From: a virus
Lineage: Duplodnaviria; Caudoviricetes
Virus record (IMG/VR): IMGVR_UViG_3300027711_000003
Coordinates: 1 to 47,275 of that record
DNA length: 47,275 nucleotides
Reading direction: 5' to 3' (one strand)
The translations under genes and the position numbers were made by a program. Shown one piece after another: positions 7,801 through 46,295 of the stretch; positions within the stretch are counted from its first letter, which is position 1; every line of letters starts with the position of its first letter. The notes beneath the pieces are model-generated. The model did not search any database. It was not told the origin of the DNA and worked only from the letters and a program-made list of their open reading frames with translations.

Positions 7801-8649
7801 GGCTTGTCGGCCATCAATGCTTTGCAGGTTCTCGATACTAATAGCCTGCTCTATCTCATCAATAGCCTTGCCTGCTTGGATGTCCTGAGCCCTACGGAAG
7901 ACAGCTTGATCCAGCTCTTGAGCTAACTGAGCAGCCTCTGGGTCTCTTTGGTGTGCGTTGACATCAAGGTCAGGCTCTTTGCCATGCCTAAGTCTGCGGT
8001 ATCCACTGACACCAAGACTGACACTACCAGAGATAAGACCACCGCCAGCAGCGCCTAGAAGAACGTCCTGCCAATCTCTTTGTGTATCTGTCTGCATAAG
8101 GGCAGCTTCAATAGCTGCACCCTCTGCTGCACCGTAACTACCTGCACGCAATGCACGCATAGTAGCGGAGCCTCTTACACCCCCGCCCACTAAGCCGGTT
8201 GCTACATAAAGGGGCAGTAGGGCTTCATCTGTCATACCAGCCATGAACTGGTATCCCATCCCTCTTATCCCTTCTTCTGCTAACTTTCGATGCCTCTCCC
8301 TATCCTCGGCAATCTGTTCTACCCTGGCTTCCCAGTCTTGGAGAGAAACAGCTTGACCAAGAAAGTCAATCTCCCGATCATCATAGTCATCACTGACCTG
8401 ACGGATTCTATCTTCAATAGGGAAATCAGGATCGTACTCTTGAGTCTCAAGCTGCCGATCCGCAGCAGCTCTGAGTGTTACATTCTCCCTAGCCAGGCTC
8501 CAAAGATCACTACTGGACATCCTCTCACGATTATTCCATTCCTGCTCTTGCTGGAACTCTTCACGGAACCGTGAGTAGTCTACAGTTGTAGACGGCTGCC
8601 ATTGACGGTCGGGAGAGATCGGGTCTAGCCTTCTCTCTTGGTCTGCCAT
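4813..8649 (-). CDS. Internal virion (ejection) protein, gp16-like
   Basis: 1278 aa helical protein, last of three internal virion genes before the tail fibre. The C-terminal GQLITQFRGFS motif is typical of this class. Confidence 0.8.
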   Translation of the reverse strand: MADQERRLDPISPDRQWQPSTTVDYSRFREEFQQEQEWNNRERMSSSDLWSLARENVTLRAAADRQLETQEYDPDFPIEDRIRQVSDDYDDREIDFLGQAVSLQDWEARVEQIAEDRERHRKLAEEGIRGMGYQFMAGMTDEALLPLYVATGLVGGGVRGSATMRALRAGSYGAAEGAAIEAALMQTDTQRDWQDVLLGAAGGGLISGSVSLGVSGYRRLRHGKEPDLDVNAHQRDPEAAQLAQELDQAVFRRAQDIQAGKAIDEIEQAISIENLQSIDGRQALMDELMPLAEQRMSRGARRELEVEHRRLAEQARRLREEQDGTPALDPGGTNRQRLRKAEERRARLEEIQERMAPVQRRMDEIEARLKEDQPLRDAWADISRLAQGQVPEHLAERLQQRMREDMSPLRNREFDRARELAAEATRLRQERAAQTEEVSTDPDAPVSQVGAARAEGATNPEDTFAVREEGLIEDHVARSAQHGNTLPEPDLLRRLAGLGLKGLSSTYSRLAQSPSSIMRGLGHMLLSDPQGAGRGHVPASIYQDTFMNRIIQAAAGEEYDARMDWARSKGIPHVAVLNNDTRMMEFDNQIVLAIRSGDHDDPNIMKAAAARQRMFSEALKMRKQYGVRGFENVEDHPAYWSFLPDGSKMHEAVRKYGREQVVETLTGAYMNGRYRIPERTARVLANAQYARAINRSLKARSEVNSILGGRDLENLRNDLKSVGFDDQRIDDMIETFQRTDIEQNISDRAKLSLGASISHSHNGLRMVDLIDTSHNVALRYSREASADAAIATQGFKSRFELEETIREGERVSKNILDDQIREAENAGNTRLAKDLRKQSTEVSADAEIMMESIKMMYGQSLDVRSDGSISPITRAARMSGKYTNIVRLTWNGPASIAENANALVNFGFSTVAKNTRLKDFTQIGKLRKSPELQAPYRLLGAYGQEGAFYKNRNYLLQTMDEFDQNKLEQIFNNYAGFVSNKTQLLSAFRSIQHGSEDLALRSMLDRMTQIARREITPTQRDWDNLERAGMSREEMEIVFRDMRENPEYVNVDGEQVQTFSGDNLDPALRDKLGAAMNSLLARQMQKSFVGDTPVWMNKALGQLITQFRGFSLVAIERQVAAGFRGDKIGMGLKVMFGSLLGGAAYYSRAYVRAEASGDPEAEWEKATNPATATMGIANMTPHLGILGFGMELGATVGLPVDGATGTREGVRPITGPGALPAAGVLEQMLSGVRGTVGGMATGDSEQAVQGLKQLYGVTPLVNTAAVGAGMALANQVRD

Positions 8650-19147: not shown

Positions 19148-19168
19148 CCTCTTATAGTGGTCAGTTAA
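19148..19168 (-). promoter_or_regulatory. Phage RNAP promoter (start of late region)
   Basis: TTAACTGACCACTATAAGAGG. Confidence 0.82.
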
Positions 19169-21029
19169 TTTCGCAACCGCCTGCTCCGCAAGCAACTTCA
19201 CCTGCAAGATCAGTGTTATCTGTCTCTTCATGGACCTGGGTAAGGTCTACGCTATGAAGATGCTTAGACATTTCAAAGAACTTATCTTCGGTAATGTCCT
19301 CGAAGGGAGCCTGGGCGTAGGTGCCTCCATTGTATGGGAGAACTGAGATGCCGTTGTATTCATCCCGGTGATCCCACATCCACTGGGACAGGTCATGCCA
19401 CTCATCGTCTTTGACTGAAATAGTGCAGGAGACGTTGTGCGAGTTCTTACCCTTACGGTGCCCAGTGCGAACCCACTCGTTATTGAAACGAGAGACACGA
19501 TCAAGAAGGTCTTGCATGGTCTCTGTCCTGACGATACTGAACTCAGGGGCACGTTGCGGCACGCTGATAACAGCCATGCTGTCCGGGCGAAACGCTTCGT
19601 CCTCTACCAGCTCAGGGTGGTTCTCAGCCAGGTACTCGTAGATGGCCTCGTTCTTTCCGACACGCATACGGCGGATGTAGTATTCGTTGTGCCATGCGTG
19701 AATCCCGCTTGAGCTGCCTGCAACCAGAGAACTGGTGCCACTGGGCTTGACGGTAGTGGTACGAGCAGCAGGATTGATCCCGAGCTTCTTGGCAATCTTG
19801 GCGTTCTCTTCCTTCACGATCTGAGCTGCACGCTCAAGGTCAAGGCCAAGGACTGCACCGCTGGCGATACCAGTCATGCCTACACCGATGAGGGCATCCT
19901 CTTCGGTAGTCCGCTTCCACTCCGGATTCAGGTAATGGAAGTCGGTGTAGCCTGCCTGGAGGGTGCCGATGAAGGCAGCAGCCCTGGCACGAGCTTCAAG
20001 GTCTTCTTGGTCCTTGATGTCACTGGCGTTGATCTCGGTGAGATTACAGAACTGGTACGGTTGCAGGGCAATCTCGCAACAGGGGTTGGTGCCCCAGTCA
20101 AGGTCGCTGGTCCAGTACACACCAGGCTCACCTGCACCGCTGGCCTCTACAGCCTGCATGAGTTCAAAGAACTCTTCCCGAGAAACCTCACCACGAGGGA
20201 GAACAGAGGAGTTGTTGGCACGACCGCGCTGAGGGTTATCTTCCCACCAGGCACCTGCCTTGGCGTTCAGCATCTCCTCATCATCCCGGTCGAACAGGCA
20301 GATAAGAGCAGCTCGACGAATACCACCAGCAAGCACGGCGTCAGCGATGAAGCACTGCATGTCATGCACTTCGATAGGAGTCAGCTTAGTGCCTCGGCCT
20401 CTTGCCTTCAATGCCTCTTCCAGAAGACGCTCCAGATTGAACAGGCACTCACGGAGAGGATCAGGACCAGGAGCTTTGCCACCGGAAGTAATCAGCTCTG
20501 CACCCTTAGGGCGGATGTCGCTGAAGTCAAAGACAGGCTTGATCTTGCCGTAGAAGTACGCCTCGACCAGAACCTTCACCGCATCAGACCAGCCCTCAAT
20601 ACTATCACCGACAAGGAACCTTCGCTCCCGGTAGTCAGGGCCAAGCAGGGGAGGCAGCTTATCTACATGACGCCTCTGTACACTGTACCCTGCACCTGAG
20701 CCACCAAGCAGGAGGAACATGGTCTCTTGGAAAGCACTGGTCTTCTCAACAGGAAGATAAGCACAGTTAAAGATACGGTTGGGAGCCTTCTTAATAGGAC
20801 TGCCGCCGAACTGAAGAGAGCGCATGGAAGGCAGAACCTTCTTGGGAATCACGTAGTCCATGTACGCATTGAAAATCTCCAGAGAAAGCTCCGGATATTT
20901 CTCTACGTGCATGTTAATGTTACGCCATACAATCTCCTCCCATGTTTCACGGCGGCCCTTCTCAGGTACGAACTTAGCGTACTTGGTGAACACCGTGATG
21001 TCGCTAAGAATCTCTGTTGCCTTGTCCAA
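19161..21029 (-). CDS. nrdJ: Class II (adenosylcobalamin-dependent) ribonucleotide reductase
   Basis: FNCAY, GGIRRAALI, TNPCCEI, FCNLTE and TTVKPSGT motifs, with C-terminal CGAGGC. No beta subunit gene. Probable TTG start at 21029 after AGGAG. Confidence 0.9.
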   Translation of the reverse strand: MDKATEILSDITVFTKYAKFVPEKGRRETWEEIVWRNINMHVEKYPELSLEIFNAYMDYVIPKKVLPSMRSLQFGGSPIKKAPNRIFNCAYLPVEKTSAFQETMFLLLGGSGAGYSVQRRHVDKLPPLLGPDYRERRFLVGDSIEGWSDAVKVLVEAYFYGKIKPVFDFSDIRPKGAELITSGGKAPGPDPLRECLFNLERLLEEALKARGRGTKLTPIEVHDMQCFIADAVLAGGIRRAALICLFDRDDEEMLNAKAGAWWEDNPQRGRANNSSVLPRGEVSREEFFELMQAVEASGAGEPGVYWTSDLDWGTNPCCEIALQPYQFCNLTEINASDIKDQEDLEARARAAAFIGTLQAGYTDFHYLNPEWKRTTEEDALIGVGMTGIASGAVLGLDLERAAQIVKEENAKIAKKLGINPAARTTTVKPSGTSSLVAGSSSGIHAWHNEYYIRRMRVGKNEAIYEYLAENHPELVEDEAFRPDSMAVISVPQRAPEFSIVRTETMQDLLDRVSRFNNEWVRTGHRKGKNSHNVSCTISVKDDEWHDLSQWMWDHRDEYNGISVLPYNGGTYAQAPFEDITEDKFFEMSKHLHSVDLTQVHEETDNTDLAGEVACGAGGCEIN

Positions 21030-21030
21030 T

Positions 21031-21342
21031 TCAGTCTCCTTCTTTAACGAAGACTCCGTTCTGCATGGAGCCTTTTCTTTTGGTAATCTTATTAAGGGCA
21101 AGCTCCAGGCACTCGGCAAGAGTAGTACCCTGCATCTTTGCTTGAATGCTGAGAGTGACTAGGACATCCCCTAGTTCCATCTTGATGGCTTCTTTGTCAT
21201 TCACCCAGATGATCTCTTCAACCAGCTCATCCAGTTCTTCCTGTGTCTTACCGATCTGGTCTACAGGTGTAGACTTCTCGAAGATGCCTTTCTGCTCCGC
21301 CCAGTCAATCACGCCCTGTTCTAGTTGATCTACGGTGGCCAT
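21031..21342 (-). CDS. MazG-like nucleotide pyrophosphohydrolase
   Basis: KTQEELDEL...ELGDVLVTL...KITKRKG.M.NGVFVKE pattern. Confidence 0.82.
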   Translation of the reverse strand: MATVDQLEQGVIDWAEQKGIFEKSTPVDQIGKTQEELDELVEEIIWVNDKEAIKMELGDVLVTLSIQAKMQGTTLAECLELALNKITKRKGSMQNGVFVKEGD

Positions 21343-25719: not shown

Positions 25720-26004
25720 TCAAATCAGCTCGATCTCTTTAAGTTTGCGGTCATCTTCTTGCATCTTCAGAGAGCAATCGTTCTCCGCCTCTGAGCACGA
25801 CTGCTGTATTCTACGAAGCGACTCATGGTGACGGGCCACCTCGCGATCCCAAGCCTCCTGGCGGGCCTGTAGGGCCTTGTCGCGGGCCTCCGACAGCTTG
25901 TCCTTGTGACGCTCCAGCCGCTCGATGGCCACAGCCTTGAGCCGGAAGGCGACACCCTCGATGAAGGCGGCGAAGGCGATGAGCGCCTTGATGAGTACCT
26001 GCAT
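25720..26004 (-). CDS. Hypothetical protein (hydrophobic N-terminus plus coiled coil)
   Basis: 94 aa, TAATG overlap with the thyX stop. Confidence 0.7.
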   Translation of the reverse strand: MQVLIKALIAFAAFIEGVAFRLKAVAIERLERHKDKLSEARDKALQARQEAWDREVARHHESLRRIQQSCSEAENDCSLKMQEDDRKLKEIELI

Positions 26005-26756
26005 TACTTAACTCCTTTGGTGAGTGCAGCCCAACTGATAGGATACAGGGGCTGGATAATACGACCGACCTCGAAGGCCAGCTCTCGAATCTCTTGCTGT
26101 GCATGAGGGTCCATGCGCTGTGAATAGAACCGGGAGAACGCAGCCAGGCTGCCAGTCCAGTACCACTCAACCTCTACCCCTTGGGGCAGGATGAATCGTG
26201 CCTGCTCAGGTGCTACACCGTCTTGGATCATCCCCTCATAAATACTGATAGCCTCATTGCAAAGATTACGGTACATCACCTTCCAATAGTCAGAGTGGGT
26301 ATGCTTCCCTCCGCTACCCTGTTTGGCATTCTCAGGTGCAGACCGGAACTCATCAGGTATGAACAACTTAGGTGTACTCTTGATATACCGTCGGCTCTCC
26401 TCGTTCTCAACGAAACCTGACTTGTGCTTAAAGCACTGAGTCCGGATGGGGACAGGAGCCTGCATCACCACGGTAATCTGAGGGTGTGCAAAAGGAGTCC
26501 AGTGACCATGCTCTGCAAGGAACTGGATCAGGCCGAAGTCCTCGACACTGAGGATTCTATGCCCGATCTTGTCATCCCATGTCGCCTGTGTCTTTAGTGC
26601 CCAGTCACGGTACAGATCCCATGCCTGGTAGTGCCGGCTGTTGTAGTTCGGCACGTATTCTCCGTCAACGTACCAGCTCTCCTTAGCAAAGGAAACTCGG
26701 GCTGCATCTACGACCAGTAGGTCATCGCCCATGTGCGTCTTGTAACGCGCTTTCAT
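26004..26756 (-). CDS. thyX: Flavin-dependent thymidylate synthase
   Basis: VDAARVSF, HWTPFAH, KHKSGFVENEESRRY, EQARFILP and HAQQEIR motifs. Confidence 0.92.
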   Translation of the reverse strand: MKARYKTHMGDDLLVVDAARVSFAKESWYVDGEYVPNYNSRHYQAWDLYRDWALKTQATWDDKIGHRILSVEDFGLIQFLAEHGHWTPFAHPQITVVMQAPVPIRTQCFKHKSGFVENEESRRYIKSTPKLFIPDEFRSAPENAKQGSGGKHTHSDYWKVMYRNLCNEAISIYEGMIQDGVAPEQARFILPQGVEVEWYWTGSLAAFSRFYSQRMDPHAQQEIRELAFEVGRIIQPLYPISWAALTKGVK

Positions 26757-39803: not shown

Positions 39804-40445
39804 ATGTTACAGGCTGGCTTGGTGCCTGTCAAGTCTTGTCTTGCTGGGCGACTTGATGCCCTTCGAATGAGTAGCCTAGCCTTGCTAGGTCGTGTCGCTT
39901 CTCAGCGAGTTGGTTACATCTTAGCAGCCTTGATTCTGCCTGTCAAGTCTTTTGTTTATCCTGCCCGCTTGCTTTGGCAGCTTGTCTACAATTGTAGACT
40001 TTCCTACTTCAGCTTGTCAAGCTCGGTCATCCTGACCCGATTAGAACTGTTCCTGTCCGCCTGACTTGCCTTTCATGCTAGACGTTCTGTTGCCGGGTGT
40101 CAAGCCCCGCTACTCCCTTTGTTTAGGTCCGTCGAGTAGCTACCGTGGACCCGGATCGAGTGCCTTGTGGCAACAGCTCCGATTGCTTGGCTTTCATCTT
40201 AGCTCAGTGAATCCAGCCTGTCAAGCCTTCCGAGCTTCTGGTCAACCTTGGCGCATTGCCCAGTATGGGATGCCTTGCCTTGGTTTCCAATGGCGAGCCC
40301 GTCGCTTCACAAGGCTGCCCGGATTGCTTGGCTTTCATCATAGTTCTTCGATTCCAGCCTGTCAAGCCTTGGCGTGCAATTCGTTCGAATCTTGTTTGCC
40401 TTGGCTTGTGTGGTGAACCTTAGCGAACCTTTGCGAACCTGTCAA
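39804..40445 (-). promoter_or_regulatory. Array of seven host sigma70 early promoters
   Basis: TTGACA -35 boxes (plus-strand TGTCAA) at 39827, 39941, 40015, 40098, 40219, 40360 and 40440. Their -10 boxes are TAACAT, TAAGAT, TACAAT, TAGCAT, TAAGAT, TATGAT and TAAGGT, at 17 bp spacing (one at 18). Confidence 0.9.
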
Positions 40446-40480: not shown

Positions 40481-40782
40481 AAGGACAGACCAGGACAACC
40501 AGGACAACCAGGACAGACCAGGACAGACCAGGACAGACCAGGACAGACCAGGACAACCAGGACAGACCAGGACAACCAGGACAACCAGGACAACCAGGAC
40601 AACCAGGACAACCAGGACAACCAGGACAACCAGGACAACCAGGACAACCAGGACAGACCAGGACAACCAGGACAACCAGGACAACCAGGACAACCAGGAC
40701 AACACAAGGACAGCACAAGGGAAGAATAGGACAGCACAAGGAAGGAAAGGACAGGATAACAAGGACAGGATAACAAGGACAG
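40481..40782. repeat. Tandem 9/10-bp repeat CCAGGACAA / CCAGGACAGA
   Basis: About 24 contiguous units to ~40702, then 5 degenerate AGGACA units. Confidence 0.95.
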
Positions 40783-40820
40783 ATGCACCCAGGCACTTAT
40801 CCACAGGCTTATCCACAAGC

Positions 40821-40940
40821 TAAGTCCTTGATTTCACAAGGGAATCCCGACTTATCCACAGGATATGCACAGGCTCCTGGCCCTCGCGGACATCCCAGGA
40901 CACGTGATGTTATAACATAACAAAACGCAAGTGCCTGATT
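40821..40940 (-). promoter_or_regulatory. Two IHF consensus sites
   Basis: AATCAAGGACTTA (40821-40833) and AATCAGGCACTTG (40928-40940) match WATCARNNNNTTR. Confidence 0.55.
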
Positions 40941-41280
40941 CACAAGGGATTCCGGTATCCCGATGAAATGTTATAACATAACAAAAGAGGGCAGGCGAGT
41001 CGCCCGACGCCCCGGTTCTCCACAGGATACGCACAGGTTATCCACAGAACGGTCCACAGGCCGCCCAGGAGGCCCCAGGAGCCACGATCTGTCCACAGGA
41101 TACCCACAGGGCGGCCCAGGCCGAGAGGCCCGCACAGCGCGGCACAGGGCGATCTGTCCACAGGCCGTCCCGGTTGTCCACAGGTTCAAGCCCTTGTATG
41201 CACAGAATGCAATGTTATACTATAACAATACCCTGCCCGTGTCGCCCGCTACGCCCTGTGATGTTATAACATAACGGAAG
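40904..41280. promoter_or_regulatory. Four Zur-box-like 23-bp sites
   Basis: Sites at 40904-40926, 40965-40987, 41209-41231 and 41258-41280 resemble the gammaproteobacterial Zur consensus GAAATGTTATA-N-TATAACATTTC. Confidence 0.7.
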
Positions 41281-41523
41281 GAGTCCACAGGCTGTCCACA
41301 GGGCGTCCACAGCTTTCCCACAGGATACCCACAGGATGTCCACAGGCCAAGGACGGCACGGGGGACGCGGGACTTCGCCTGCGGCGAGAACTGCCCGCAC
41401 AATTCCGTACCAAGTTTTGCATCTGGAATAATCCCTTGTAACCTCCTGAGATGATACATCTAACCTGAGGACTCCCAGTAGTCCTATAACAACTAGAACT
41501 TCCACAGAGAGTCCACAGGATTA

Positions 41524-41715
41524 CTACAACTTCTTAGTCATTACCTTCTGGGCTACATTACTAAAGAAGTATCCCCCTAACAAAAGATAGGTTAGAGTCT
41601 CGAAGGACGACGCAGGTAACTTATCTACGATGAGGAGTACAGTAAGCACTGCTTGCCAGAACATAGCCGACCAGAACTTACGGGAACTCCATCTACCCTT
41701 AGTCTCTTCCTTCAT
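41524..41715 (-). CDS. Small two-TM holin-like protein
   Basis: SRKFW followed by two hydrophobic helices and a basic tail. Lies directly after the endolysin. Confidence 0.6.
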   Translation of the reverse strand: MKEETKGRWSSRKFWSAMFWQAVLTVLLIVDKLPASSFETLTYLLLGGYFFSNVAQKVMTKKL

Positions 41716-42260
41716 AGAACTTGGTCTGCTAGTGTATCTGCTAGAGCAGCTACCAGCTCATCCTTGTACTTAAAGTATCTGTCCAAGTCATCCTTGTTGG
41801 TGATGAAGAAGAGTTCAACAATCAAGCCATCTGCCTGTCCTACAAAGGCTAGTCTACTGTGCTGACCTGATCCTTCACCCTTCGTGCCTCTGTTGGCAAT
41901 GCCGAGGGTAGAAGATACCGTGTCGCAAATAGCATAAGCCAAGGTTGAGGACTCACCAAGAGTCTCTACACCTGTTGCACCAGGGTCGGTAAAGGCATTG
42001 CAGTGCAGCTCGATAGCTTCATCATACTCCTTAGCCATCTCTACTGCCTGTCGAAGAGGTAGGTTCTCACCCTTCTCTCCGTCCATGCCAATTACTACAC
42101 CCCTAGCTCGAAGGGCTTTGCAGAGTCTGTCACGTAGATCAAGTACAATATCTGCTTCAGTATACCCATGCCCTGAGGCACCTGGGTCGCTGTAGCTATG
42201 CCCTGCTGCAATGAACAGGGACTTGCGTTGCTTGGCTGTCTCTCTCTTGAAGTCGGTCAT
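41712..42260 (-). CDS. Endolysin, N-acetylmuramoyl-L-alanine amidase (Amidase_3)
   Basis: AGH..SDPGA...TEA, IELHCNA...ATGVE and LIVELFFITN motifs. Confidence 0.92.
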   Translation of the reverse strand: MTDFKRETAKQRKSLFIAAGHSYSDPGASGHGYTEADIVLDLRDRLCKALRARGVVIGMDGEKGENLPLRQAVEMAKEYDEAIELHCNAFTDPGATGVETLGESSTLAYAICDTVSSTLGIANRGTKGEGSGQHSRLAFVGQADGLIVELFFITNKDDLDRYFKYKDELVAALADTLADQVL

Positions 42261-42263
42261 GTC

Positions 42264-42716
42264 TTAGTCCTTCCTTCGTCTTATCTTGTTAATGAACTTA
42301 GCAATCTCAGGAGCGCCAGGAGAGAGAAATAGAAGAAGAAGGAATAGCCAGTACATACCAGGCACTTTGTCTATTTGTAAGGACTCGGCAGAGAAGTCTG
42401 AGAGCGACACGCCAGCACCAGTACCCTTCTCGGTACTCGACACGCTAGAGTCGCTAGTTGACTGGACGTTCGACACGCCACTGACTTCACTTACTTCTAC
42501 TCCTGCATCTGTCTCTGTTCGTTGCTCACGCTCTTCGACACTCCGGTTGCTTACTACTGCGTCACCCTCTGCCACGTTCTCTGCACCAATCTGGGCTGTG
42601 GCGTCCACAGACGGCCCTGACGGCCCGAGAGCGGATAACCCTGCACCTATGCCCTGCATCGCGCTGCACGCGCTCAGAGAGGCGCACACGGCGATTACGG
42701 CTATGGCTCTAGTCAC
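42264..42716 (-). CDS. Unimolecular spanin (u-spanin)
   Basis: N-terminal lipobox LSAC, beta-rich middle region, C-terminal TM (YWLFLLLLFL) and basic tail. Adjacent to the endolysin. Confidence 0.78.
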   Translation of the reverse strand: MTRAIAVIAVCASLSACSAMQGIGAGLSALGPSGPSVDATAQIGAENVAEGDAVVSNRSVEEREQRTETDAGVEVSEVSGVSNVQSTSDSSVSSTEKGTGAGVSLSDFSAESLQIDKVPGMYWLFLLLLFLSPGAPEIAKFINKIRRRKD

Positions 42717-42775
42717 AGCGTACGCTCCTCCTGTTGATTGTTCTAGTAAACATTATTTAGGAACTTTATTCCAGT

Positions 42776-42811
42776 AAACAAAAATAGCCCCATCCGCGAG
42801 GGACAGGGCTA
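42776..42811 (-). terminator. Rho-independent terminator
   Basis: Minus strand reads TAGCCCTGTCC-CTCGC-GGATGGGGCTA-TTTTTGTTT. Confidence 0.85.
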
Positions 42812-43964: not shown

Positions 43965-45800
43965 CTATCGCCAGCGACGCATGGGGCTCCGCTGCCCTCG
44001 TGCGAAGCGGTTCATCGGCTTCGGGCTGCCTCCCGAAACGCCCATGTGCTCCCTGCGCTTCTTGGGGTCACGCATGATCTCCTGCATTTCTAAAGCCTCT
44101 CTCTGTCTCTGCTTCTCCAGCTTGCTGCTGTAGTCGTAGTCGATCTCCATGACCAGCTTACGACAGGCGGAGGCAACCGCTTCTATACGGTCATCGTGCT
44201 TGAGAGAGTTCTTGTCCCTGGTCAGGTTGCTCATCTGGTGGAATAGCTGGTAAGTCTTCCTCTGCTCGGCAGGGTACTTACGTGTGCTTTCGATGTCCTT
44301 ATCAATCAGCTCCCGGTTGACTACTAAGCGGTGCGAGTCCATCAGAGGTTCCAGGGTGTCAACGATCCTGACTTCCTTCTGTCCGGAGCTGTAGTCGTCC
44401 TCGATCACGCACGGGTGCTCGACTTCGAACATAGGCTTCAGAATCGCCATGTGAGCCCCGTGGCCGAAGTTCTTCTCGACATAGACCTCGTGCACACCTG
44501 CCCGCTTTGCGGCCTGCACAAGCTCTCTCAGGGGCTTCTCGTCGTACCCACCGGGCACGCCTCCGGCATCGTACAGGTACAGCAGGTTCCCCAACTGGAA
44601 TACGATGGCGTACCCGGTCTCGTCTCCGTTCGCGCCACCGCCAGCGGGGTCGATGTACATCACCTTTCTCTCAAATGCAAGCCACTCGTACGGCTTCGGG
44701 ATCGGGCCATAGAATCGGTCGGTCTCCCTGGAACCCGGCTTCAGAGTGGTCTGTACGCGATTCTCCGGGGCGTTGTTCCACACCGGGAGGGATGGCCCAT
44801 CCTTGTGCCCGAACGCCGTCACGATCAAATTAGACGGCTTCAGGGGGTATCGCTGTTGGTCGGACAGCCGGGTGTTCAGCATGAACTGCAACTGGAACTT
44901 GCTCTTGCCCTGACTGACCTCCTTCTCGATCAGTAGCTCGTCATCGAACATCTCCGGGCAGGTGGGTGCGCCACTGGCCCCAGAAGGCCCGTAGCCGCTG
45001 CGTAAGCCCGGATCGGCCTGCATCTGTGCCTTGATACTGGGTGCCAGGAACTCCCCGTACACGTCCTCCTCGGCGGCTGTAGGGTAACGTCCCGGCCAGA
45101 TGCGTATGTCGTACCCCCGGCCTGGCAGGTTGTTGTAGATCGAGTCCATGCTCTGCGGCGTCCCAAGGTACAGGATGTCGCCGTGCTGGTTGATGGATTC
45201 GAACTCCTTGGTCTGCTCTTCCAGCCACTCACGTCCTGCAACAGACCTGCTGTTCTGAAGACTCTCGATGTCGTCAGGGATCAACAGGTCTGCACGGGCA
45301 CCCTGGGCACCTGAGGTGATGCTGTAACAAGAGATAGACGGAGACTTATCACCACCTTTGAAGACATGATGAATGTCGAAAGCCTCGGTACTATCCTTGT
45401 CACCTGCTGTCTTGTCAGGAAGCATGAAGTGCAGGAAGTCTAGTCTCTTGAAGATTTTGACCACCCAGCCTGAAATCTCCGTGGCACGCTTGCTAGTCTG
45501 GGAGAAGATTACGATGCGATAGTGCGGCTGGTGTATCAAGGTGAAAGCAGCAAAGATACCAGCAAGAGTGGTCTTAGCCTGGCCGCGCTGGGCCTGGACC
45601 ATGCGGTACTTCTTACCAGTTAGCATGTATTCAAGGATGTCGGCCTGTGTTGCATTAAGGTCAGGCCGACCTGGGATAAGCTCCTTGATACAAATCTGTG
45701 CAAAGTCCCAGAGACCTTCGACGCTATACGGGAACGTCTGTTGAAGAATCTCTAGGTCATTCCACATTGCTAACTTGTCTTCAAGAGTTAGCTTACTCAA
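43965..45800 (-). CDS. terL: Terminase large subunit, copy B (complete)
   Basis: AQRGQAKT, GARADLLIPDDIE, YLGTPQ, IDPAGGG..GDET, EKNFGHG and HDDRIEA motifs. Confidence 0.96.
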   Translation of the reverse strand: MSKLTLEDKLAMWNDLEILQQTFPYSVEGLWDFAQICIKELIPGRPDLNATQADILEYMLTGKKYRMVQAQRGQAKTTLAGIFAAFTLIHQPHYRIVIFSQTSKRATEISGWVVKIFKRLDFLHFMLPDKTAGDKDSTEAFDIHHVFKGGDKSPSISCYSITSGAQGARADLLIPDDIESLQNSRSVAGREWLEEQTKEFESINQHGDILYLGTPQSMDSIYNNLPGRGYDIRIWPGRYPTAAEEDVYGEFLAPSIKAQMQADPGLRSGYGPSGASGAPTCPEMFDDELLIEKEVSQGKSKFQLQFMLNTRLSDQQRYPLKPSNLIVTAFGHKDGPSLPVWNNAPENRVQTTLKPGSRETDRFYGPIPKPYEWLAFERKVMYIDPAGGGANGDETGYAIVFQLGNLLYLYDAGGVPGGYDEKPLRELVQAAKRAGVHEVYVEKNFGHGAHMAILKPMFEVEHPCVIEDDYSSGQKEVRIVDTLEPLMDSHRLVVNRELIDKDIESTRKYPAEQRKTYQLFHQMSNLTRDKNSLKHDDRIEAVASACRKLVMEIDYDYSSKLEKQRQREALEMQEIMRDPKKRREHMGVSGGSPKPMNRFARGQRSPMRRWR

Positions 45801-46099
45801 CCCAGACCTCGCTCTCTGGCTTCAGCTTTGAAGTCCAGCACCCGCTTACCGGACTTCTCCTGGATTTCTTTGAGCCTAGCAGCCAGGGGGCTGGTGCTGT
45901 CCTCAGAATCAGGTGCAGCATAGACACCATTGTCCAGAACCCACTTGGCGATACTTTGGACTACACGATGGTCAATAGCCATATCTGCATCCATGCCTCC
46001 GTCGATATTCCGGAGGATTGCCTCTGCTTTCCTCTGGTAAAGCTCGGTGACTAGCTTACTCAGGAATCCAAGTTCACCTTCAGTTGTCCTTTTGGTCAT
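45797..46099 (-). CDS. terS: Terminase small subunit, copy B
   Basis: Differs from copy A at two residues (DEGMD/DGGMD and PLQAR/PLAAR). Confidence 0.8.
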   Translation of the reverse strand: MTKRTTEGELGFLSKLVTELYQRKAEAILRNIDGGMDADMAIDHRVVQSIAKWVLDNGVYAAPDSEDSTSPLAARLKEIQEKSGKRVLDFKAEARERGLG

Positions 46100-46295
46100 G
46101 ACGTTTCTCCTTTCTATTTTTGTGACTAATCCTCCACCTGTAAGCAAGATAAGAACCTTGGAGTAGTGTGTATAGAATGGTTGCTATGTACATCCATTCT
46201 TCTAACCCAAGGCCAAGGACACTAGCAGCACTTACAGTGATAGGAGGGGCGACCCGAAGGCCGCCATCAACCACCTGTTGCGCTGTGTTAGACAT
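46080..46295 (-). CDS. Holin, copy B
   Basis: Near-identical to copy A except the first ~10 residues. ATG start. Confidence 0.8.
   Translation of the reverse strand: MSNTAQQVVDGGLRVAPPITVSAASVLGLGLEEWMYIATILYTLLQGSYLAYRWRISHKNRKEKRHDQKDN

Follow-up and report, generated by a model that had tools for sequence, protein, structure and literature searches.

The window analysed here, a 47,275-nucleotide stretch of viral DNA (IMG/VR record IMGVR_UViG_3300027711_000003), derives from an uncultured T7-like, SP6-like podovirus and is written on the minus strand, with an SP6-like gene order. Its RNA polymerase (~46% identity) and large terminase (58–60%) are related to those of the Molineuxvirinae; searches returned no close cultured relative, and no cultured phage closely matching the region that carries the boxes described below. 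The amidase, 45–54% identical to those of phages of several gammaproteobacterial genera, and NrdJ, 66% identical to those of Oceanospirillum and Vibrio phages, point loosely to a host among the Gammaproteobacteria. Genes for a ribonucleotide reductase (19161–21119, nearest to class II enzymes), a thymidylate synthase (26004–26756) and a MazG-like protein (21031–21342) are without annotation in the SP6 or Kp7 records. Positions 1–2152 and 44114–46265, in the terminase–holin region, are near-duplicates (94.7% identity) followed by different genes, which suggests that two strains were joined in the assembly. A 16-bp palindrome (7-2-7) occurs in 13 copies genome-wide, within and between genes (starts at 8578, 16437, 21259, 25704, 30298, 32398, 32580, 32644, 33543, 35950, 39984, 40465 and 43937); it is also present near the repeat in L121/L137 and L143, and a related palindrome has 7–10 copies in SP6, Kp7 and BD1.

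Organization of the genome end

The boxes lie between the last late genes, encoding an amidase endolysin and a 63-aa protein (41524..42260, minus strand; the last gene at 41524–41715), and six strong sigma-70 early promoters (39804..40365, minus strand; nine found against 2.5 expected). This is the position of the terminal repeat in SP6-like phages, and both of its boundary motifs are present. Records with doubled ends (SP6, 174 bp; Kp7, 238 bp; MGD2, 322 bp) have left-end and right-boundary motifs in common. A left-end motif similar to the initial 30 bp of these three repeats is found at 41360..41390 (minus strand), and the right-boundary motif of T7-like terminal repeats at 40778..40784 (minus strand). 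In SP6, Kp7, S2, Nifs112 and phD2B the latter is no more than 2 bp from the end of the repeat, as is a variant of it in MGD2 and R15Z; counted from the predicted left end of the window, it has a single copy in the first 800 bp, at offset 607. Since the motifs of doubled-end phages recur here, a direct terminal repeat of ~606 bp is predicted at 40784..41390 (minus strand), with boundaries inferred from the doubled ends and a survey of other phage ends. We take the right-boundary motif to be the concatemer-junction pause signal of the phage RNA polymerase; a literature search on that signal returned nothing relevant. The left-end motif also has an inner relic near 41125, which would allow an alternative repeat of ~340 bp with the third and fourth boxes just outside. 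Depth is flat at 84.5 over 40814–42806, as measured on assembled contigs and not virion reads. A long 9-bp tandem repeat occupies 40484–40700, just inside the left end, where L121 and L143 have other short repeats.

The sequence-only reading had described Zur boxes interleaved with DnaA boxes, and the region indeed contains four perfect DnaA boxes. Three of them (40797, 40809, 40852) and one degenerate copy lie at the right end of the repeat (40797..40871, plus strand) and are conserved in relatives. A middle cluster (41016..41204, plus strand) holds the fourth (41038), with the other members at 1–3 mismatches. Six degenerate DnaA-like nonamers in the same orientation, with an exact 11-bp period, follow at 41281..41344 (plus strand) and presumably resemble the low-affinity arrays of oriC. 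An IHF-like site between the first two Zur boxes, also claimed earlier, was found at 40928..40940 (minus strand) with one mismatch. A perfect IHF consensus is present at 40821..40833 (minus strand), in a number of IHF matches that 25/100 shuffles equalled and that is not significant genome-wide. The Zur-type boxes, the DnaA arrays and the IHF site thus fill the predicted ~606-bp repeat. Two small ORFs across it (40963–41274 and 41220–41459) were set aside as candidate genes, with frame-breaking gaps in the alignment with relatives.

Zur-type boxes without a promoter

All four 23-mers reported in the sequence-only reading are present, at 40904, 40965, 41209 and 41258. They fit the 23-bp consensus named there loosely (6, 5, 3 and 8 mismatches) and match better a 20-bp dimer-of-dimers pattern taken from the E. 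coli Zur–DNA structure (PMC4219657, accessible text). By this pattern, none of them assigned to a strand, the boxes comprise operator 1 (40903..40922, one mismatch), operator 2 (40964..40983, no mismatch), operator 3 (41208..41227, two mismatches) and operator 4 (41257..41276, one mismatch), the last lying ~115 bp from the predicted left end. Spacing within the two pairs is 61 and 49 bp. Mismatches to the 19-bp Zur box number 4, 3, 1 and 5, respectively.

With up to two mismatches allowed, the four boxes are the only matches to the 20-bp pattern in the window, and 60 simulated genomes gave a mean of 0.07 and a maximum of one. A 16-bp core pattern, also at up to two mismatches, gave 10 strand matches, all on the four boxes, against 0.05 expected, a count reached in 0/100 shuffles. 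Shuffles, simulated genomes and expected counts together rule out a chance origin. Fur was rejected as the ligand, the boxes differing from the 19-bp Fur box (PMC2706843, accessible text) at 7–10 of 19 positions and being distinct from it. Judged by sequence, the four sites are likely Zur-type operators of operator grade.

The bacterial context of operator 1 agrees with this assignment. Its exact 18-mer was searched in GTDB, and the nearest ORFs were scanned for the 80 loci with flanks among the matches listed (at least 120 of ~170 loci). A canonical zinc-starvation gene lies beside it in 30/80: ZnuA (10), CobW (9), ZinT (5), L31 (3), FolE2 (2) and ZrgA (1). Another 19/80 loci have a Fur-family regulator gene, mostly in Pelagibacterales and not independent of one another. 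DUF1007, ShyB-like, HisI, TonB receptor, ABC ATPase or OprB genes adjoin 17/80 and are plausible members, whose link to Zur we assume; the remaining 14/80 have other or no matches. As a sequence, then, the 18-mer of this one box is a proteobacterial Zur operator.

Three relatives (L121, L143 and L144; terminase 76–85% identical) cover the region, other terminase loci ending earlier or being distant. Operator 2 is among the longest invariant runs of the four-phage alignment and is a conserved, orthologous box. Operator 1 aligns with the second box of L143/L144 and is lost in L121; operators 3 and 4 belong to an expansion specific to the window. Sequence changes in two related contigs spare the boxes (0/19 changes, p = 0.03; 0 of 10 listed changes out of 11, p = 0.11), a weak signal because the changes are clustered.

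The claim that the nearest early promoter is more than 450 bp away was borne out: among scored sigma-70 promoters, the closest to operator 1 starts at 40365, at a distance of 538 bp, with a weaker candidate at 458 bp, near 40445. At the boxes themselves, a promoter was rejected for want of a −35 element. Overlap with the −10 and −35 elements of a regulated promoter, expected of a bacterial Zur operator, is not seen in the window. The boxes could still act as Zur-repressed extended −10 promoters, or control a short RNA within the repeat: every box contains an extended −10-like element, all boxes in T7-like phages are oriented as in 22/30 bacterial promoters, and a terminator-like hairpin (40989..41006, minus strand) lies between the pairs, directly before operator 2. 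Against this, −35 matches are at background (1–4 of 6 on either strand when the window and seven other phages are taken together; 2–4 of 6 in the window), the hairpin is lost in L143/L144, and in a search for structured RNA no Rfam family matched the region at E ≤ 1. We consider such promoters or RNAs very unlikely.

Zur and Fur boxes at packaging genes and phage ends

In IMG/VR viral contigs, 80 loci carrying a Zur 15-mer were examined, scoring terminase genes within 1.5 kb. The abundance of a single 15-mer is in itself weak (~350 against 240 for a scramble), so that the context carries the signal. The 15-mer lies outside ORFs in 57/80 loci against 9/80 for the scramble, and a terminase gene is nearby in 23/80 Zur loci against 1/64 scrambled-motif controls (13/54 against 1/49 by cluster, p = 0.001; 150/182 control ORFs scanned). 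With terminators as a control for non-coding position (149/157 ORFs scanned, a weak fourth-ranked TerS match in L613 excluded), the proportions are 16/57 non-coding Zur loci and 4/66 terminators (p = 0.0012; p = 0.016 by cluster). Terminators lie mostly in short gaps, with 8/70 in gaps over 500 bp; this control is therefore imperfect, and part of the enrichment may reflect large non-coding space. Tandem boxes occur in 15 contigs, with TerL within 1.4 kb in 8/13 scanned, the other two mirroring L280 and CPP1m. As for zinc-related cargo, a single CobW was found among 124 ORFs beside the 80 viral loci. In L006, the box lies 38 bp before terS. In two further groups (L068, L071, L076, L080; and L013, L024, L053, L060, L078), it is found 20–40 bp before terS or at the terS stop codon, and zinc control of the packaging genes is possible in these two groups. 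Contig L272 (74.6 kb, viral) begins with six tandem Zur boxes of 19-bp period (13–127).

Using the boxes as queries in similarity searches identified cultured phages that carry them. Two boxes lie inside both repeat copies of Vibrio phages MGD2 (322-bp repeat) and R15Z (321-bp repeat). At left ends with no perfect DnaA boxes, R24D has three Zur boxes, Marinomonas phage CB5A four and CPP1m three. Among the Studiervirinae, Providencia phage PSTRCR_120 and Cronobacter phage B1 have one each at the junction. In the Grimontviridae, the non-coding stretch before the terminase holds four boxes in Salmonella phage 7-11, three in SE131 and one each in Cronobacter phage A24 and ECO319P1. Phage phiEco32 has no Zur box in its first 2.5 kb. 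A match in Xanthomonas phage SU1 was dropped as unrelated. Two extra Zur-like boxes, a fifth in CB5A right after the RNA polymerase gene (L147:9850–9869) and one among the early genes of PSTRCR_120 (L290:1309–1328), are possibly true regulatory sites.

Across 16 T7-like ends, five have Zur boxes only, two DnaA boxes only, three both and six neither. This survey is non-random, with positives found by searching for them, and so shows interchange and dispensability rather than frequency; PM85, whose record does not start at the repeat, is omitted. SP6 and Kp7 are without a Zur box. In all eight Zur-positive ends, the first box lies ~115–160 bp from the left end.

A Fur 15-mer, meant as a control, gave a parallel result. 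It is non-coding in 32/80 loci, and the terminase scan, covering these 32 and leaving out the 48 coding loci, placed it within 1.5 kb of terminase genes in 14/32 (9/21 clusters). Several Fur boxes lie 5–10 bp before what we take to be a cosQ-like motif. In lambda (L669), the Fur box core (48453–48465) is 7 bp before this motif and ~40–50 bp from the right end. The arrangement of a Fur box directly before the cosQ-like motif is present in lambda (48447–48479) and the lambdoid contigs L450, L460, L475, L493, L504 and L431. At T7-like ends, no Fur-like box better than 5 mismatches was found in 15 regions. Related sites are known near nohA and nohB, which we take to be prophage small-terminase genes. 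The nohA site, 233 bp upstream of the gene, is shifted by E. coli Fur, and for nohB a Fur cluster of 25.3 bits is predicted; the accessible text of that study treats both as ordinary promoter sites (PMC2189734).

Placement at packaging signals would also suit a phage protein, such as the small terminase, as the ligand, with the likeness to Zur incidental. The same motif is found, however, in phages with unrelated terminases, its variation follows the Zur pattern, and the exact 18-mer marks bacterial zinc genes. This makes a phage ligand extremely improbable. Zur boxes at phage ends are, at the level of sequence, a real, conserved and recurrent feature.

Possible roles at the chromosome end

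The sequence-only reading had proposed that the boxes are a zinc-regulator decoy or, as a second idea, make genome entry or packaging responsive to zinc. Its description survives in part: Zur-type operators without a regulated gene do lie at the genome end beside DnaA and IHF sites, and the decoy for zinc import is the weak part. The second idea is closer to the evidence, the boxes sitting at terminal repeats and terminase genes.

In the decoy model, Zur would be titrated by the replicating phage genomes, so that zinc uptake and zinc-free ribosomal proteins are derepressed and phage enzymes receive zinc. The window offers strong, multiple, promoter-less sites, and tandem arrays of up to six boxes exist in L272. 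E. coli contains ~120 nM Zur (PMC7049717, accessible text), by estimate roughly 100 dimers, which some 10–15 copies of the repeat would absorb at eight dimers each. Titration is thus arithmetically possible and may occur, if only as a side effect. A decoy would work wherever it lies, yet in unrelated phages the Zur boxes keep to terminal repeats and terminase genes. It predicts neither single boxes, nor the replacement of Zur by DnaA boxes in other repeats, nor the same placement of Fur boxes; Fur is far too abundant to titrate. SP6 and Kp7 encode the same kinds of enzymes (primase/helicase, resolvase-type endonuclease and endolysin) yet have no Zur box, contrary to the proposal that Zur is titrated for the benefit of phage zinc proteins, and T7-like phages shut off host transcription early. 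We regard a decoy as improbable.

The explanation we favour, tentatively and at somewhat less than an even chance, is that the boxes are optional, interchangeable docking sites for host proteins at the last-packaged, first-entering end, acting in cis on the handling of that end. Docking rather than zinc bait is likely because Zur and Fur sites recur by packaging genes or at the ends of unrelated phages, lambda included. Its basis is the operator match, the bacterial gene context, conservation, the lack of a −35 element, placement, interchange with DnaA boxes and the Fur parallel; from these we infer Zur binding and its effect at phage ends. The end with the boxes is, in lambda as in T7-like phages, packaged last and ejected first. 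The T7-like repeat would stand at each end of the virion DNA and once at every concatemer junction, with the left copy packaged last and entering first. Host Zur, already in the cell, would clamp onto this end in dimer-of-dimers form and be one of several interchangeable proteins (Zur, Fur, DnaA). On entry, it may coat the tip before any phage gene is expressed, providing anchoring, capture or shielding. During packaging, Zur would sit 115–490 bp ahead of the terminal cut, as a brake or spacer for the terminase. Zinc sensing would be incidental and the module optional; with neither site at six of the 16 ends, it cannot be essential. Against a simple nuclease cap, lambda's right cos end is where RecBCD enters the DNA, and the enzyme displaces proteins bound to it.

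Several observations fit docking poorly. The box of PSTRCR_120 seems to lie before the repeat, at the last-entering end only. L006 is a further exception in placement, as are L068/L071/L080, where the box ~20 bp before terS has a 4-of-6 −35 match and is promoter-like. The shared promoter-like orientation of the boxes in T7-like phages also counts against docking.

Occupancy by Zur, like that by Fur, DnaA, CtrA or Spo0A, might instead act as a gate, delaying or licensing entry, replication or packaging according to the state of the host, here its zinc status. In favour, all the proteins in question are physiological regulators, a possible terS promoter overlaps with some of the boxes in other phages, and the fifth box of CB5A follows the RNA polymerase gene. 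Binding of Zur is zinc-dependent (PMC4219657, accessible text), and the Spo0A boxes of phi29 (PMC2731898, accessible text) and the CtrA phages (PMC9437464, accessible text) provide precedents. There is, however, no promoter at the boxes of the window, relatives swap Zur for DnaA or lose both, and different cues at the same place are more easily explained by generic docking. A gate of this kind appears unlikely, less so than a decoy.

A broader proposal is that Fur-family repressors (Zur, Fur) are unrecognised, widely used cofactors, with operators placed independently at the ends of cos, headful and terminal-repeat phages, lambda included. The bound metalloregulator would steady entry or the terminal packaging cut and make both steps depend on host zinc or iron status. 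We consider this possible but doubtful.

The boxes can be compared with known systems. Proteobacterial Zur operators (E. coli znuABC, zinT, L31p and pliG, PMC4219657; Y. pestis, PMC2706843; accessible texts) share the dimer-of-dimers pattern, to which the boxes have 0–2 mismatches, and an identical 18-mer stands before zinc-starvation genes. The window differs in having four copies, no −35 element and no regulated gene, inside a predicted phage terminal repeat. The nohA/nohB sites (PMC2189734, accessible text) and the lambda right-end box are likewise Fur-family operators by a packaging site, with a gel shift for nohA; they belong to cos phages and an iron regulator, whereas the window combines a T7-like repeat with a zinc regulator. 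Sites for host regulators in phage terminal DNA are already known from CtrA phages, phi29 and T5. The CtrA sites of alphaproteobacterial phages are concentrated in terminal repeats and gap regions, have independent origins and turn over fast; there, EMSA and reporters show control of promoters (PMC9437464, accessible text), of which none is evident at the boxes here. Phi29 carries Spo0A boxes at the ends of a lytic phage genome, and they affect non-transcriptional steps; it differs in its protein-primed origins and a demonstrated sporulation switch (PMC2731898, accessible text). DnaA boxes in the T5 terminal repeat are also host-protein sites in a non-coding repeat, with a proposed role in DNA entry; that is an in silico proposal, for a 10-kb repeat and two-step injection (bioRxiv 10.1101/866236, accessible text). 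In a literature search covering few subscription journals and lacking older work on lambda packaging, Zur or Fur operators were nowhere described as characteristic of phage ends.

The placement of these boxes suggests that a metal-sensing repressor is used outside transcription, and offers a candidate function for the 'empty' DNA of phage terminal repeats. Cultured phages with boxes include Vibrio R15Z and MGD2 and Marinomonas CPP1m, and lambda has a Fur counterpart. If metal status does gate entry or packaging, starving cells of zinc or iron would alter phage yield, which would bear on marine phage ecology and on phage therapy under nutritional immunity.
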